Source: Gammaproteobacteria bacterium
GTDB lineage: Bacteria > Pseudomonadota > Gammaproteobacteria > DRLM01
Direction of reading: 5' to 3'
Length of the DNA: 64,000 bases
Assembly: GCA_023266095.1 (NCBI GenBank)
Contig: JAHFRV010000009.1
Location: 471 to 64,470, forward strand
Shown here: positions 56,216 through 63,366 of the stretch, in pieces
Position numbering within the stretch: position 1 is the stretch's first letter
How the letters are laid out: each line of letters begins with the position of its first letter
Notes under the pieces: model-generated
What the model was told of the DNA's origin: nothing
The model's input: the letters and a program-made list of their open reading frames with translations, nothing else
Databases searched by the model: none
Position numbers and translations under genes: made by a program

Positions 56216-58137
56216 TCCTCCAAAACAATACGGCCGCGGTTCGCGATACCGGCGGCAAGTTTATCCTGAAATACGGAAATAGCCATACTGCCCAGGTCTT
56301 TACCGCTACGCGTGCGCACGGCCACGGTCTCTTCGCTCATCTCCCGGTCGCCTACCACCAGGAGGTACGGCACACGCTGTAACGCGTGCTCGCGGATTTT
56401 AAAGCTAATCTTCTCGTTTCTCAAGTCCGATTTCACCCGGAAACCCTTTTCTTTCATGATCTTCTCAATCCGCAGGGCATAATCGGCCTGTCTGTCGGTG
56501 ATGGTGAGCACCATCGCCTGGGTCGGCGCCAGCCAGGGCGGGAAAAATCCGGCGTAGTGTTCAATAAGGATACCGAGGAACCGTTCCATGGAACCGAGGA
56601 TGGCCCGGTGCAACATCACCGGTACCTTTTTGGTATTGTCCTCAGCGACATACTCCGCGCCGAGTCGGTTCGGGGTATTGAAATCGACCTGGATGGTGCC
56701 GCACTGCCACACCCGTCCCAGACAATCTTTCAGAGAGAATTCGATTTTGGGACCGTAAAACGCGCCCTCCCCCGGCTGCAGATCCCAAGCCAGGCCTTTG
56801 GCATTGAGGGCGGTTTCCAGCGCATGCTCTGATTTATCCCAAATCTCGTCGGAACCCACCCGCTTCTCGGGCCGGGTGGAGAGCTTGATCACCACCTCGT
56901 CGAAACCGAAATCGGCATAGACCTGATAGAGCAGGTCGATGAAGGCCGCCACTTCGCTTTGGATTTGGTCCTCGGTGCAAAAAATATGGGCGTCGTCCTG
57001 AGTGAAACCGCGCACCCGCATTAAGCCATGCAGGGCGCCGCTGGGCTCGTTGCGATGACAGGAGCCGAACTCCGCCATGCGCAGCGGCAGGTCACGGTAA
57101 CTCTTCAAACCCTGATTGAATATCTGCACATGGCAGGGACAATTCATGGGTTTAATCGCGTAGTCGCGGTTCTCCGACTGGGTGGTGAACATCTCGTCGC
57201 CGAATTTTTCCCAGTGACCGGATTTCTCCCACAACACCCGGCCGACCACCTGCGGGGTGCGCACCTCTTCATAATCGTGGGCCTTGAGCGCGCCCCGGAC
57301 GTATTGCTCGACCTGCTGATAAATCGTCCAGCCCTTGTCGTGCCAGAACACCATGCCCGGCGCCTCTTCCTGGGTGTGAAATAGGTCGAGCTGTTTGGCG
57401 ATCTTGCGGTGGTCACGTTTCTCGGCTTCTTCCAGCCGGTGCAGGTAGACGTCCAGCGCCTTTTTATCGGTCCAGGCGGTGCCGTAAATCCGTTGCAGCA
57501 TCTCATTGCGGGAATCGCCGCGCCAATAGGCGCCGGCCACCTTCATCAATTTAAAGGCCTTGAGCTTGCCGGTGGACGGCACGTGCGGGCCGCGGCACAA
57601 ATCGATGAACTCGCCCTGCCGATACAGGGAAAGCGCCTCGTGGGCCGGGATGTCCTCGATGATGCGCGCCTTGTATTCCTCGCCCATCTCGCGAAAAAAA
57701 ATAATAGCGGCTTCGCGCGACATCAGCGTACGGGTGACCTGCAAATCGGCCGCCGCCAGCTCGTGCATCTTATTTTCGATGGCGGCCAGGTCTTCCGGCG
57801 TGAAGGGGCGTTTGAAGGCGAAGTCGTAATAAAAGCCGTCCTCGATCACCGGACCGATGGTCACCTGCGCCTCGGGGAACAGTTGCTTCACCGCCTGTGC
57901 CAGCAAATGGGCGCAGGAATGGCGGATCACTTCCAGCCCCTCGGCATCGCGCTCGGTGACGATGGCCAGGGCCGCGTCCTGTTCGATCAAATGCGAGGTA
58001 TCCACCAACTTGCCGTCCAGCTTGCCCGCCAAGGCGGCCTTGGCTAGGCCGGGGCCGATGGCGGCGGCGACCTCGTGGACGGTGACGGGGCGATCGAAAG
58101 GGCGTCGGCTTCCGTCGGGCAGGGTGATGGTCGGCAT
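56212..58137 (-). CDS. thrS: Threonine--tRNA ligase
   Basis: [46 protein letters not shown] (TGS domain), class II catalytic core, C-terminal anticodon-binding domain. The start is internal to ORF 56212..58191. Confidence 0.95.
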
Positions 58138-58237
58138 GGTCTGTTCCGTGTGTCGCGGCTCAAGTGGGCGATCAGGCTGGCCATAATACAAAAGAGCACT
58201 GCGCGATAAGCGCGGTGCCCTGGATTCATCTAAAAAT

Positions 58238-58314
58238 TGGTAGGCGCGAGAAGACTCGAACTTCCGACCCCCACCATGTCAAGGTGGTGCTCTAACCAAC
58301 TGAGCTACGCGCCT
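58238..58314 (-). tRNA. tRNA-Val (GAC)
   Basis: rc: AGGCGCGTAGCTCAGTTGGTTAGAGCACCACCTTGACATGGTGGGGGTCGGAAGTTCGAGTCTTCTCGCGCCTACCA. Confidence 0.88.
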
Positions 58315-58446
58315 GCGAAGAGGGCGGAAAGATAGCACAAAGCGCCGCCGCGAAACAAGATTGCTTGATCGATTTTGCGGCCGGTTGCTTTGCTTCTCCC
58401 TTCGCTATCCATCAAATACGGCAGTGTAAGCCCATCCAGCGGTTAC

Positions 58447-58941
58447 TTAATGCTGGTGCCCACCGTCACCATGGGCATGGCCATGGGCAATCTCTTCAGC
58501 GGTGGCGTTACGCACATCGATTACTTCAATCTCGAAACTCAGCGTCCTACCCGCCAGAGGGTGGTTGGTATCCACGTCTATGTTCTTGAGGCCGGCCTTG
58601 ACTACCGTCACATCGCGCGGTCCCTGATTGGTATTGACCTGTACCGTCATGCCCGGCTTGTAGTTGATTTTTCTATTGGAGGGATTGGCCACGTGTTTGA
58701 TCGACACTCTTTGCACCGCATCCTCACGCCGCAAACCATAAGCTTTATCAGGCGGTAAAGTGACCGTGAACTTGTCGCCGGCCTGCTTGCCCGTCATGGC
58801 CTCGGTCAGCCCCACCAGCATGCCGTGCTGACCATGCAAATACACCAGCGGCTGACTCTCATACGAATCCTCAATAACAGCCTGACCCGGTTCGCTCAAA
58901 CGATAATGGAAGGTGACGACTTTATTCAATTCTACCAACAT
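58447..58941 (-). CDS. slyD: FKBP-type peptidyl-prolyl cis-trans isomerase SlyD
   Basis: MLVELNKVVTFHYRLSEPGQAVIEDSY...PLVYLHGQHGMLVGLTEAMTGKQAGDKFTVTLPPDKAYG, and a C-terminal His-rich metal-binding tail (AHGHAHGDGGHQH). Confidence 0.88.
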   Translation of the reverse strand: MLVELNKVVTFHYRLSEPGQAVIEDSYESQPLVYLHGQHGMLVGLTEAMTGKQAGDKFTVTLPPDKAYGLRREDAVQRVSIKHVANPSNRKINYKPGMTVQVNTNQGPRDVTVVKAGLKNIDVDTNHPLAGRTLSFEIEVIDVRNATAEEIAHGHAHGDGGHQH

Positions 58942-59115
58942 GATTCTCTCCGGTTATTATCAGGTCGCGCGCATCGCCATATTATTGATGTTTTCAGGAA
59001 TTGTGAACATCTAGACCAAGATGCGGCCCGCCGCATCATCGTTCGCCCGGTCGGCCCACCATGCAGATGTGGCGTCAGCGCTTGGTAGAAAAGCGCCCAT
59101 CCTTCACCTCGGCAT

Positions 59116-59595
59116 TCAATCCTGGCTCAGGCTCATCAAACGGGCACTCAATAAACGCGCCATGCCTTCCGCACCTTGGCGCATCACGTGATCATGGTTC
59201 CATTTGAACAGGGGCCGCGCGAAGGGCGCGATGATATTCATCCAACGACGATTGGTCCGTACCTGCCACTCATAGCGTACTACGGTGGCCGCTCCCTCAG
59301 CGGCGAAACGCCAGCGCCCCATTCCTTCCACTTCCCCGCTAGCCAGACCCTCGACCACCGTGAGTGGTATGACGTGGGTAACGCGCATATCGAAAGTGAG
59401 TCGATAAGGCAGCCGCCCTCGCCAGGTAAATCGGCGCACACTGCCCACGCCATTTTGGTCACCCGGCTCGAATTCCTCGACTTTTTCCACGCCTTGCCAC
59501 CACAGCGGCCAATCCCGGCAATGAGAGATGGCATCACACACCGCTTGTATCGGTGCCTCTATCCGCCACTCGGTGACAAACTGAAATTGCGCCAT
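59116..59595 (-). CDS. SRPBCC-family protein (polyketide cyclase/dehydrase-like fold)
   Basis: 159 aa; MAQFQFVTEWRIEAPIQAVCDAISHCRDWPLWWQGVEKVE is typical of SRPBCC/activator-of-Hsp90-ATPase-like small proteins. Confidence 0.55.
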   Translation of the reverse strand: MAQFQFVTEWRIEAPIQAVCDAISHCRDWPLWWQGVEKVEEFEPGDQNGVGSVRRFTWRGRLPYRLTFDMRVTHVIPLTVVEGLASGEVEGMGRWRFAAEGAATVVRYEWQVRTNRRWMNIIAPFARPLFKWNHDHVMRQGAEGMARLLSARLMSLSQD

Positions 59596-59601
59596 GACCG
59601 C

Positions 59602-60267
59602 CTACTGACTGAAAAAATCCTTGGGAAATCCAGGATGGATTTGCAGGCCGTCCATGTCAACGGTCTCAACCAGCCTGCCGCTCCTACCGAAGCTCAGCAC
59701 CTTTAGAGGAAAGCCAGTCGTTCGATCCAGCCATAACTGGTAACGGGAAACGGCGTCGATCGAGACATCGTCACCGACACTGACTCGCACATGCAGCGCT
59801 TGCTGCCCGCCTACCACCTCCACGCCCATCAGCTCGGTTTTGCCTCGCGTCCGCAGCTTTTGCACATTCTGAAATAAAGCTCCCACATCCGAGCGGTCCA
59901 CCCGCTGGCCGGTGGGGCTTTGAATCAACTTGTTTTCGGGGCTCAGGTTCAAGGCTGGAAAACTGCGGTGACCAAATGGCCAAAGCGTCACTCGCCGGGT
60001 CAGCGGATCGTATACCAGCACGGCGCCTTTATACGACGTCTCAAATTCCATGCGTACATAACCGGGCTTTTTGAAATAATAACGAATGATCTCGCTTTTA
60101 CCCGTGCTCAGCGATGTCAATCTCACGCCATAACTCTCGACTGTCTGATAAAAATCGATGGCGGCCCTAAGCGGATCGGCGGTATCGGCGGTATCGGCGG
60201 TATCGGCGGTATCGGCGGTATCGGCGGTATCGGCGGTATCGGCGGTATCGGCGCCAAGATGAATCAT
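59602..60267 (-). CDS. LolA-like/lipoprotein-carrier-fold protein with N-terminal (Ala-Asp-Thr)x9 repeat
   Basis: MIHLG(ADT)9ADPL... then ~180 aa beta-rich domain (YYFKKPGYVRMEFE...VLVYDPLTRRVTLWPFG...). No signal peptide is seen. The repeat is encoded by (GATACCGCC)n. In-frame stops lie immediately upstream of the ATG. Confidence 0.5.
   Translation of the reverse strand: MIHLGADTADTADTADTADTADTADTADTADPLRAAIDFYQTVESYGVRLTSLSTGKSEIIRYYFKKPGYVRMEFETSYKGAVLVYDPLTRRVTLWPFGHRSFPALNLSPENKLIQSPTGQRVDRSDVGALFQNVQKLRTRGKTELMGVEVVGGQQALHVRVSVGDDVSIDAVSRYQLWLDRTTGFPLKVLSFGRSGRLVETVDMDGLQIHPGFPKDFFSQ
60160..60252. repeat. Perfect 9-bp tandem repeat (ggcggtatc)x9 plus partial units, in-frame within a coding region
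   Basis: Nine exact head-to-tail copies at 60168-60248 with partial copies at each end. The unit length is a multiple of 3, so it encodes (ADT)n on the minus strand. Confidence 0.9.
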
Positions 60268-60389
60268 AGTGCTGGGCTCCGCTCATGATTAGCCGGACAT
60301 GCTCACGACGGCGCGCGCAAAAGGCAACGCGCTGTAGTCTATAGTCTTACCTCGTCAGCCGCTCTCCACCGTCTCAAGGTGCTCGTTGT

Positions 60390-60821
60390 TTATTTCGAAA
60401 GCCCAAACCAGGATTTGAATAGTTTGATGCGTTCGATCTTCTTTATGTCAGGTAATACGGTATAAAACGGCGAAAAACGGATAGAGACGGTTTTTCCATC
60501 ACCCCACGGCCACCAAGAGCAATAGATCAAATCATGGTGACTGGGATCGGAAGTGAAAAGCACCTGCCCCGCCCTCAGACCGCCGAAATGTTTATGGATA
60601 AATTGCACAATCTCAGGCGCGCCGCTGATATTGGCGACATCCCACCTACTGGCAAGATGGCGTTGAATCACCGCACGCACCTTGTCCTGCTCAGTCGTTC
60701 TAAACTCGCTCAACAGACATGCGAAACGATCGTCCCATTTCCATATCCCACCTTTCAGCGTGCCTACCAATTCTCTGCAAAAATTCTCTTCCGAATCAAG
60801 AAGCGGCCCCATCATCGTCAC
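60390..60821 (-). CDS. Hypothetical protein (no recognised domain)
   Basis: 143-aa ORF in a locally lower-GC stretch (60.3-61.05 kb) with W-rich motifs (CSWWPWGDGK). No similarity recognised. Confidence 0.4.
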   Translation of the reverse strand: MTMMGPLLDSEENFCRELVGTLKGGIWKWDDRFACLLSEFRTTEQDKVRAVIQRHLASRWDVANISGAPEIVQFIHKHFGGLRAGQVLFTSDPSHHDLIYCSWWPWGDGKTVSIRFSPFYTVLPDIKKIERIKLFKSWFGLSK

Positions 60822-60907
60822 CTAATTATTCCGGGTTAAACCCGGTGTAATTCCACAGCAAAGGAAGCTCTGAATAATTCCATCCTGGAATTCTCAAAGC
60901 AAGCAAA

Positions 60908-61030
60908 GCGAAAAATGCGATTTTCGCTTTGCTTCATTTTCAATGGCCGGCCGCCATTGAAAATGGCGACAAGACCCTGTGCTTCGCTCTTCCCTGTGCC
61001 GCAGGAACCGCTGAATAAATCAGAGGCTCC
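60908..61030. repeat. Structured intergenic repeat, copy 1 (two palindromic hairpins plus conserved ~40-nt core)
   Basis: Hairpins gcgaaaa-atgcgat-tttcgc (60908-27) and cattttcaatggc-cggccg-ccattgaaaatg (13-bp stem, 60935-65). The core is ccctgtgccgcaggaaccgctgaataaatcagaggctcc (60992-61030). It lies immediately 3' of the minus-strand DUF2132 gene. Confidence 0.6.
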
Positions 61031-61053
61031 CAATATCAATCGGGCCTGATTCT

Positions 61054-61362
61054 TTAATCAATCCGGTCAGTCGGCGGCGGCGAACGGGTATTTATATATA
61101 AACGTTCGACCTTCTCTCGCGCCCAGGGTGTGCTTCTCAAAAACTTCAGGCTGGATTTGATGCTCGGTTGGTGTGTGAAACACTTGATGGGAATGAGGCT
61201 TGCCAATTTTTCCCAACCATATTGTTCCGCCAGCCGGGTAACCGCCGTTTCCAGCGTAACCCCGTGCAGCGGATCCTTGGACGGCGGTTCATTCATATCG
61301 TGGCCTGATTCACTCATGGTTCGGATAGACGCGACGCTTAGCGATTGCCGCTCGTCACTCAT
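61054..61362 (-). CDS. DUF2132 (VF530-family) small DNA-binding-like protein
   Basis: ...HGVTLETAVTRLAEQYGWEKLASLIPIKCFTHQPSIKSSLKFLRSTPWAREKVERLY resembles the VF530/DUF2132 signature. Overlaps the upstream RRM gene by 8 nt, so likely an operon. Confidence 0.5.
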   Translation of the reverse strand: MSDERQSLSVASIRTMSESGHDMNEPPSKDPLHGVTLETAVTRLAEQYGWEKLASLIPIKCFTHQPSIKSSLKFLRSTPWAREKVERLYINTRSPPPTDRID

Positions 61363-61612
61363 CCTGGTCCTTGCCCGGCTCCGCTTTCTTCACGCGGATT
61401 TTATTGCCGCCCACATCCCGGCCATTGAGTTGTTTGATCGCCGCTTTGGCTTCACCGGCCCGGGGCATTTCGGCGAAACCGAATCCTTTGGATTTTCCTG
61501 TCTCGCGATCCACCACCAACTTGCAATACTGCACCGCGCCATAGGCCTGCAACATCTCCAGCACTTCACTCTCGGTGGTTTCCCGAGCCAGATTGCGCAC
61601 CAATATTTTCAT
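61355..61612 (-). CDS. RNA-binding protein with RRM domain
   Basis: MKILVRNLARETTESEVLEMLQAYGAVQYCKLVVDRETGKSKGFGFAEMPRAGEAKAAIKQLNGRDVGGNKIRV contains RNP-2 (ILVRNL) and RNP-1 (KGFGFAEM) motifs. Confidence 0.85.
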   Translation of the reverse strand: MKILVRNLARETTESEVLEMLQAYGAVQYCKLVVDRETGKSKGFGFAEMPRAGEAKAAIKQLNGRDVGGNKIRVKKAEPGKDQDE

Positions 61613-61803
61613 ACTTACACCTATTGTTCCGACTGCACCTGGACCGCCGCGACTTGCAGCGGAAATTTAAGATCCACTAGCCAGCCATCGGCGAAGGAAC
61701 AGTTACGCTTACTTTTCCAAACCAGACACGCCGCCGCCCCAACCGTACCGCGCTAAGGCCAGCTTCCGCAACAAGGCAGTCATTGTGACAAGAAGCCGGC
61801 TAT

Positions 61804-61822
61804 TAAGGAACCTCTGATTTAG
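61804..61822. repeat. Partial third copy of the intergenic repeat core
   Basis: ggaacctctga(tttag) matches 11 contiguous nt of the core ggaacctctgaataaatcag. It lies 3' of the minus-strand Mo-enzyme gene (stop 61895). Confidence 0.35.
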
Positions 61823-61894
61823 CGGCAGCGCCCGCGCGCCAGCGGTATAGAGCCTGCCCAAACGAGGAAAGTAAGCAAGCTTAACTATAGGCCA

Positions 61895-62656
61895 TCAAAG
61901 TCCGGCAAACCAATTATAGCCTTTGTCTTCCCAGTAGCCGCCCGGATACCTATTGGTGACGTAAATCGCCATGATGTGCTTGGGATTCTTGAAACCCAGC
62001 TTGGTCGGTATACGCAGTTTCATCGGAAAACCATACGAACGCGGCAGTATCTGGTCATCATAGCGCAGCGTCATTTGGGTCTGGGGATGCAACGCGGTGG
62101 CCATGTCGATACTGGTGTAGTAATCGTCCGCGCATTTAAAGCCGACATATTTTGCGCTCAAATCGGCGCCGACCCGTTCGAGAAAGGTCCGGAATGTGAC
62201 GCCGCTCCATTTGCCGATGGCACTCCAGCCTTCGACGCAAACGTGACGGGTGACTTGCGTGGTCTGCGGCAAAGCATTCAGCTCCCGCAGCGACCACGGC
62301 CGGCGGTCGCGAATCAAACCGCTGAGTTCGAGGCGGTAGGGTTCGGCCTCAACTACCGGCGCCTCGTCTTCATCGTAAAAAGCATTAAACGGAAACGGCC
62401 GGGTAATCGCGCTATCCGGATAGGTGGGCGCCAGTCGGTTCGGATCGAACAAAGCCGCCTGAACCCGATCGTTCCAGCGCGACATGCTCCACAGCGTCTT
62501 GCGCACCGTTTCTTGATTGGTGATATTGCAACCGGTAAGCAGACCGAGCGCGCCCACGCTCAGCGCTCCCTTCAGCAGTAGACGGCGTTCGAGAAATTGG
62601 CGCTCAGCCTTGCTGCACTCCACGGGGGCGGATTCGATGCCAGGCCGGCGTTTCAT
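61895..62656 (-). CDS. Sulfite-oxidase-family molybdopterin-binding oxidoreductase, Tat-secreted (YedY/MsrP-like small Mo enzyme)
   Basis: Twin-arginine signal ERRLLLKGALSVGALGLLTG. Moco-binding region HVCVEGWSAIGKWSGV typical of the sulfite oxidase fold. ~250 aa. The start is internal to ORF 61895..62725. Confidence 0.7.
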   Translation of the reverse strand: MKRRPGIESAPVECSKAERQFLERRLLLKGALSVGALGLLTGCNITNQETVRKTLWSMSRWNDRVQAALFDPNRLAPTYPDSAITRPFPFNAFYDEDEAPVVEAEPYRLELSGLIRDRRPWSLRELNALPQTTQVTRHVCVEGWSAIGKWSGVTFRTFLERVGADLSAKYVGFKCADDYYTSIDMATALHPQTQMTLRYDDQILPRSYGFPMKLRIPTKLGFKNPKHIMAIYVTNRYPGGYWEDKGYNWFAGL

Positions 62657-62658
62657 GA

Positions 62659-63366
62659 TCAGCTCCTCTTGCCGGGTTGCCGGACGCGGCCGGTCCACAT
62701 CGGAATAAATGTCCGCGGCACCCACATCACCATCACCACATGAATCACCACGAACGACACGATGCCCGTCATGGTAAAGAAATGCACCAGCCGCGCCCCT
62801 TCATAACCGCCCAGCAAGACACCCAGACTCTGTAATTGAACCGGCTTCCACATCACCAAACCCGACAGCACCACGAGGATGATCATCACGATGACGCTGA
62901 GATACGCCGTGCGTTGTACTGGATTATAGGTGCCGACCGCGTGACTCAACCGGCCAGAGGTAGTATTGGCGATTTCCCGCAACAGAGACTTCACGGTGAT
63001 GGGCAACAAATGCTGGCGGTAATGACCCGAAAAAATGCCATGCGCCAAATAAACCAGGCCATTGACGGCCAGCAGCCACATCGCGGCGAAATGCCACTGC
63101 AAGGCCCCCGCCAACCAGCCGCCCAAGGTCAGGTCATTCGGAAACGTGAAATTGAACAGCGGTGAGGCATTGTAGATCCGCCAGCCGCTGGCCACCATGA
63201 TCAGTATCGCCGCGACATTGACCCAATGGGTGATCCGTACCGTCAACGGATGCACGTTTATCAGTGTTGTATTTTCAGAAGACGGGGGTACAGGTAACGA
63301 ACCTGACATCATCGGTTCCTTCTGGCCTAAGCACGCCGCATTGCGTGTTGTTATGAGGAATGTCAA
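62659..63366 (-). CDS. Membrane b-type cytochrome subunit (cytochrome b561-like), partner of the Mo enzyme
   Basis: Polytopic (4-5 TM) with conserved His in TM helices (VRITHWVNVAAILIM, WHFAAMWLL, HFFTMTGIVSFVVIHVVM). Its stop lies 3 nt upstream of the Mo-enzyme start. The exact start (63366 or internal MMSGS) is uncertain. Confidence 0.6.
   Translation of the reverse strand: MTFLITTRNAACLGQKEPMMSGSLPVPPSSENTTLINVHPLTVRITHWVNVAAILIMVASGWRIYNASPLFNFTFPNDLTLGGWLAGALQWHFAAMWLLAVNGLVYLAHGIFSGHYRQHLLPITVKSLLREIANTTSGRLSHAVGTYNPVQRTAYLSVIVMIILVVLSGLVMWKPVQLQSLGVLLGGYEGARLVHFFTMTGIVSFVVIHVVMVMWVPRTFIPMWTGRVRQPGKRS

Follow-up and report, generated by a model that had tools for sequence, protein, structure and literature searches.

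The proliferation of short repeats is a described source of low-complexity regions in prokaryotic proteins (PMC10120016 and PMC6821194, in the parts available), and a coding repeat with phase-variable copy number is on record for M. tuberculosis (PMC12817950, likewise in part). According to the available portion of PMC2715451, repeats in 5' regions modulate expression in other bacteria. As far as the same portions of PMC10120016, PMC6821194 and PMC12817950 go, the phenomenon to which the present locus belongs is well known, and the instance itself is new but ordinary. The array described here lies in a 64-kb stretch of DNA, the whole of which was analysed and is called the window. We put at about 0.78 the probability that a coding tandem repeat (a coding VNTR) has here expanded recently, in frame and within one lineage, probably with near-neutral effect.

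An exact period-9 tandem array occupies 60175..60253 on the minus strand, where it runs for 79 nt (8.8 units) with zero substitutions and spans codons 6-31 of its gene. On the coding strand it consists of eight copies of GCCGATACC followed by GCCGAT, plus the C that opens the flanking CCG codon, and its product is (Ala-Asp-Thr)8-Ala-Asp. Read in the register GATACCGCC (minus strand) or GGCGGTATC (plus strand), eight full copies are found at 60178..60249; TRF reports 60171..60253 with period 9, 9.3 copies, 98% matches and a score of 159, its additional copy being a degenerate 8-nt unit, GCGG-ATCG. The array is the sole strong tandem repeat of the window (runner-up TRF score 56). With three mismatches tolerated, seven pairs of adjacent units were observed against 0.08 in shuffles, which excludes a chance origin of the array. 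The preliminary description was right to report a perfect 9-nt tandem array at this place, coding and in frame, in which a change of length alters a tail rather than acting as an on/off switch. Several of its details have to be corrected: the nine exact repeats are eight full units and a partial one, so that the peptide reads (ADT)8 then AD-P and not (ADT)9; the array begins at codon 6, after M-I-H-L-G, and is near the start codon rather than immediately after it; and the GC content given as about 65 percent is 58.4% as measured over the window. We also considered and dropped a reading of the 9-mer as a DnaA box or iteron, as the array lies within a conserved CDS and is absent from all relatives, and this reading is further disfavoured by the presence of the unit at only four other places in the window.

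The array lies in a CDS (59602..60267, minus strand) whose 221-aa product has a LolA/RseB fold and no signal peptide, a description that draws on the ORF, Pfam, homologs, AlphaFold2 and Foldseek; the N-terminus reads MIHLG(ADT)8ADPLRAAIDFYQ.... Apart from the ATG at 60265..60267, no canonical in-frame start occurs from the upstream stop to conserved helix 1, and 9 nt 5' of this ATG stands a GGAG Shine-Dalgarno sequence (60277..60280, minus strand); both are invariant in four orthologous loci. An in-frame TGA lies six codons 5' of the ATG (60283..60285, minus strand) and excludes a longer N-terminus or signal peptide. The next in-frame start after the array is a GTG at codon 48, within strand 1, and initiation there would lose helix 32-42 together with the conserved P32, A36, Y40 and Y46, of which P32, A36 and Y40 are invariant or near-invariant and all lie in that helix. 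The array must be translated, since ATG and GGAG are conserved, the TGA stands upstream and a start at GTG-48 would entail the loss of helix 32-42. A gene that really starts downstream, with the array serving as 5' leader or promoter DNA that modulates expression by its length, would resemble the 5' repeats of other bacteria mentioned above. This is very improbable here, as its sole candidate start is that GTG, the invariant ATG and GGAG lie upstream of the array, and no promoter-like site was found within 59000-61700.

We found no evidence in either the expanded or the ancestral allele that mRNA folding sequesters the start and so affects initiation; compared with shuffles, both the leader with its repeat (z +2.15) and the ancestral allele (z +1.53) have less structure. 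Around the start (60262-60292, minus strand), AAUCAU 5' of the Shine-Dalgarno sequence is complementary to AUGAUU, in which the start codon lies, and their pairing would give a small hairpin with GGAG as part of its loop; in the orthologous locus L002 the two still pair, through a single G.U wobble (AUGGUU), and L003 is without the upstream arm. Two overlapping reading frames were set aside. The plus-strand ORF at 59920-60288 (GIGGIGG..., 122 aa) was rejected because the minus-strand frame has 279 homologs. The ORF MSGAQHYDSSW(RRY)8RRSA* (60165-60289, minus strand, +1 frame), which opens upstream, reads the array as Arg-Arg-Tyr and ends just past it, is probably no gene, its ATG being ATA in L002.

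The three nearest proteins (92, 78 and 65% identity) begin with MILLGADTADP, MVLLGADTADP and MVLLCADTADP, giving a consensus of M[IV]LL[GC]ADTADP, and the syntenic loci L001, L002 and L003 hold GCCGATACC-GCCGAT-CCG (ADTADP) at the array site, one of them with GAC for GAT (the motif is GCCGATACCGCCGATCCG in L001 and L003 and GCCGACACCGCCGATCC in L002). When the window is aligned with these loci at the DNA level, exactly 63 nt (7 x 9) are extra inside the motif and the flanks align on both sides, with GGAG, ATG and flanks common to all four. The insertion removes no residue and sits inside the existing ADTAD motif. The unit count is 8.67 here, from one assembly, versus 1.67 in L001, L002, L003 and L004. 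As L001, whose lineage is represented in ERZ27235094, is 95.8% identical to the window in DNA over 57350-60190 and still has 1.67 units, the expansion dates from after a divergence of roughly species level. ADTADT is absent from the best 120 of the 279 homologs, which were retrieved from a search of 5.8 billion proteins, and no expansion was found at the 29 orthologous loci from a scan of GTDB species representatives that covers Nitrosospira, Gallionella, Nitrosomonadales, Paraburkholderia and Aromatoleum, the best of these loci being 78% identical. The preliminary description had named, as a result that would overturn it, homologs uniformly lacking the region or a true start elsewhere; the homologs are indeed uniformly without the expansion, but the start is fixed by the ATG, GGAG and TGA.

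These comparisons are best explained by the following course of events. The ancestral gene would have held a 15-nt proto-repeat, GCCGATACC-GCCGAT (Ala-Asp-Thr-Ala-Asp), just past the start codon, and slippage in replication between its two GCCGAT copies, 9 nt apart, would have added 9-nt units. Growth to 8.7 units would amount to 63 nt and 21 residues, each step staying in frame because the unit equals three codons, and the outcome would be an unchanged LolA-fold protein with a longer, more acidic and disordered N-terminal tail. We infer the slippage mechanism, as well as the recency and near-neutrality of the expansion.

As single-stranded DNA, the plus strand of the array is predicted to form a long hairpin that includes G.T pairs (-27.8 kcal/mol, z -3.76, with 0 of 200 shuffles as stable), whereas the coding strand forms no such hairpin (-6.7 kcal/mol, z +3.26). 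A hairpin-forming repeat strand is thought to stabilise slipped intermediates. The plus strand has a negative GC skew over most of the window, which suggests that it is the lagging-strand sequence; speculatively, a hairpin in the nascent lagging strand would favour expansion. Small expansions of the unit also seem to arise readily in GC-rich genomes in general. A scan of JGI metagenomes for 2.67 units of GCCGATACC returned 77 loci (L033-L109), none of them homologous to the LolA-fold gene by tblastn. They lie in unrelated genes with all reading frames used (ADT, VSA, GIG, PIP or RRY), their arrays of GCCGATACC are perfect and range from 2.7 to at least 6.1 units, and the longest exact runs are 55 and 52 nt. 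A scan of viral contigs for the array gave 0 loci.

The precise unit count, resting as it does on one assembly, could be off. Exact-protein look-ups with the LolA-like protein, the SRPBCC protein, the 143-/141-aa product of the upstream gene, SlyD/FKBP, ThrRS (641 aa) and cytochrome b (216 aa) returned no record, and none of the 12 look-ups made in all yielded another contig that spans the array. Exact matches are on record for the RRM and VF530 proteins, on contig L110 (Logan SRR14366785), which is 100% identical to 60984-63105 of the window (2122 nt) and ends at 60984, short of the gene. This identity places the source organism, or a near-identical strain, in the public run SRR14366785. A gene index also lists a second contig of 50-200 kb with identical RRM and VF530 proteins.

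It could then be argued that the unit count, or the whole expansion, stems from a mis-resolved 9-nt de Bruijn cycle and that the true allele has 1.67 units or some other number, since the expansion is known from this one assembly, no protein or contig elsewhere carries it and the one independent contig from that strain stops short of the gene. We regard such an assembly artefact as quite unlikely. The 79-nt array and its flanks fit inside one 150-nt read, and the insertion amounts to a whole number of units, stays in frame and falls at the exact position of a proto-repeat that relatives share. A cycle in an assembly graph needs a true array of at least about k nt, and assemblers tend to collapse repeats and not to expand them; given this behaviour, a 15-nt allele could not have been inflated to 79 nt.

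Beyond the array, the protein is an intact member of its fold family. The N-terminal domain model of MucB_RseB (Pfam PF03888) matches it at E 3.4e-6 with 27.2 bits against a cut-off of 22.3, while LolA_like (PF17131) scores 15.4 bits, below its cut-off of 30; the Pfam LolA family model gives no match to the 221-aa protein, and NCBIfam gives none for it or its two neighbours. The best 120 of the 279 homologs are nearly all 197-227 aa long, with one of 242; in almost all of them the match covers about 82-92% of the query and leaves out only the repeat. AlphaFold2, given 65 sequences, yields a model with a mean pLDDT of 87.7 and a pTM of 0.80. In this model pLDDT is as low as 47-53 for residues 1-30 and at least 83 in every 10-residue block between 31 and 220, and the fold opens with helix 32-42, so that residues 1-31 are predicted to form a disordered tail. 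Against the PDB, Foldseek matches the LolA-like structure 4mxt (E 6e-10) with the highest TM-scores, 0.62 when normalised by the query and 0.71 by the target, and other matches include E. coli RseB (2p4b), LolA (7tpm and 2w7q), LprG and the cytoplasmic enzyme VioE; all have a probability of 1.00, at only 8-19% identity to the solved structures. The LolA-like fold proposed in the preliminary description is therefore borne out by the Pfam score above cut-off, the model confidence and the structural matches to LolA, RseB and VioE.

LolA, LolB and RseB are periplasmic proteins. The 221-aa protein lacks a signal peptide, as the preliminary description also held, its N-terminus being MIHLG and then the acidic repeat, with an in-frame stop six codons upstream. 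From this contrast the preliminary description proposed that the repeat may have pushed aside or taken the place of the original N-terminus; if that had been a signal peptide, a periplasmic LolA-like protein would have been left mislocalised or in decay. Our comparison speaks against it. The unexpanded orthologs share the five-residue N-terminus M[IV]LL[GC] along with the ATG and GGAG, so that, on the sequences compared, this N-terminus is already present in the sub-clade of the window before the expansion. No classical signal peptide was found, by inspection, in any homolog examined; because the unexpanded orthologs are also without one, the repeat displaced none. L001 and L004 have the same in-frame stop just upstream as the window, in orthologs an in-frame stop stands no more than a few codons ahead of the start, and their N-termini carry a hydrophobic stretch that is short and free of charges (MLGAVLTVALLF, MLSALMLAAALTG) or none at all (Aromatoleum: MADLLDEA). 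As the insertion took no residue away, the fold domain is intact, well conserved and confidently modelled, and the structural matches include LolA-fold proteins of the cytoplasm such as VioE, we find displacement of a signal peptide hardly credible.

The segment into which the expansion fell is itself variable. The window has 31 residues before the conserved Pro against 10 in the nearest relatives, and across those homologs in which the motif was correctly located this segment ranges from 7 to about 37 residues, with a mode of 17. Independent small duplications occur in it in other lineages (GTPPSGTPPDP, TNTNT). Gallionellaceae members (P0082-P0120; L016-L018) have duplications of their own, TGTPPDP versus TGTPPSGTPPDP or TGTPPAGTPPDP, and some have longer linkers rich in Pro, Ser and Ala, of up to about 25 residues. 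The low pLDDT and the variable length before the conserved Pro indicate that the tail is unconstrained.

The expansion adds to this tail 21 residues and about 7-8 extra negative charges (Asp). In view of the predicted disorder and the variability of tail length across the family, it is most likely that the expansion is neutral or nearly so, as far as the model is a guide. As all units are identical, their substitution patterns are silent on selection. A tail with extra negative charges could nevertheless affect solubility, partner binding or turnover, and one may ask whether the array is an adaptive, hypermutable locus of the contingency type, at which copy number tunes the length and charge of the tail and with them localisation, partner binding or stability. 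A perfect array this long is expected to be highly mutable, one of its strands forms a stable hairpin, the tail varies in length across the family with independent small duplications, and M. tuberculosis offers a precedent for phase-variable copy number of a coding repeat (PMC12817950, in the part available). We consider this unlikely all the same. The metagenome scan and the best 120 homologs contain no copy-number variants of this locus, the protein has neither a signal peptide nor the surface features typical of contingency genes, and a repeat that is absent from every relative cannot be one on which a conserved function depends. A near-neutral expansion remains our preferred reading.

The gene is embedded in a conserved neighbourhood. 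Six nucleotides past its stop lies a conserved neighbour for a 159-aa SRPBCC/polyketide-cyclase-like protein (Polyketide_cyc2; 59116..59595, minus strand), and the conserved neighbour on the upstream side encodes a 141-143-aa protein of no known family (60390..60821, minus strand). The order RRM_1, VF530, 141-143-aa protein, LolA-fold protein and SRPBCC protein is the same in the window (58447-61612, minus strand), L001, L002 and L003, and an FKBP/SlyD gene comes next after the SRPBCC gene in the window, L001 and L003. Within the spacer between the VF530 gene and the 143-aa gene, at 60896-60965, are two adjacent inverted repeats, with 19-nt arms that are 89% complementary and 13-nt arms that are 100% complementary. 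This hairpin block, which has no further copy in the window, may be a lineage-specific insertion or a terminator pair, as the spacer, 232 nt long here, is of similar length in L001 (226 nt) and far shorter in L002 (73 nt) and L003 (44 nt).

Every member of the LolA-fold family that we inspected lacks a classical signal peptide, which is unusual for the fold. The missing signal peptide and the SRPBCC gene 6 nt downstream together hint at a cytoplasmic role for the family in the handling of hydrophobic ligands. If the array were hypervariable in the living population, changes in tail length might alter how the LolA-fold protein works with the SRPBCC protein, for example in membrane association or partner binding. 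We think this decidedly unlikely; were it true, the tail would create population heterogeneity in a cytoplasmic system for hydrophobic-ligand handling.

The array has little import beyond the locus itself. It is a clean and datable case in which a 15-nt proto-repeat in a disordered tail became a perfect minisatellite within roughly species-level divergence, and it could serve as a strain-typing marker for an uncultured Nitrosomonadales-like lineage. The gene family may merit more attention than the repeat, being a LolA-fold family without signal peptides in a conserved cluster with an SRPBCC protein.

How, then, does the locus compare with the systems already described? With the LolA/LolB/RseB (MucB) superfamily the protein shares the incomplete beta-barrel with helices and the MucB_RseB score above cut-off, and differs in having no signal peptide and a single domain of about 190 residues. 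The Sec signal peptide of periplasmic LolA, the lipoprotein carrier, is missing here, and of the two domains of the anti-sigma-E regulator RseB/MucB only the N-domain-like part is matched by the 221 aa. Its neighbours are not lolCDE or rpoE-rseA, the conserved cluster with the SRPBCC protein standing in their place. Since it has no signal peptide, a single domain and different neighbours, the protein is no ortholog of LolA or RseB.

As for the repeat, what it has in common with low-complexity regions, as portrayed in the available parts of PMC10120016 and PMC6821194, is a proliferated short repeat that forms an acidic, disordered terminal segment. It departs from them in that the array is still perfectly periodic in the DNA, and hence very young, and is not a conserved region. 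The phase-variable simple sequence repeats of Neisseria, Haemophilus and Helicobacter (SabA) likewise place a hypermutable tract near the 5' end of a gene. Here, however, the unit of 9 causes no frameshift and no on/off switching, and the tract, lying downstream of the start codon, changes neither the frame nor the spacing of a promoter.

The closest likeness is to bacterial coding VNTRs, or in-frame minisatellites. Most of those studied lie in surface or secreted proteins and are polymorphic within populations, while the present protein has no export signal. What the array shares with them is its perfect head-to-tail copies, its unit of a multiple of three within an ORF, the unequal copy numbers of close relatives (8.7 vs 1.7) and an origin from a short proto-repeat. 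The array exceeds chance, its unit keeps the frame of a translated ORF and its copy number differs between genomes, as it does in the coding VNTRs known from other bacteria.
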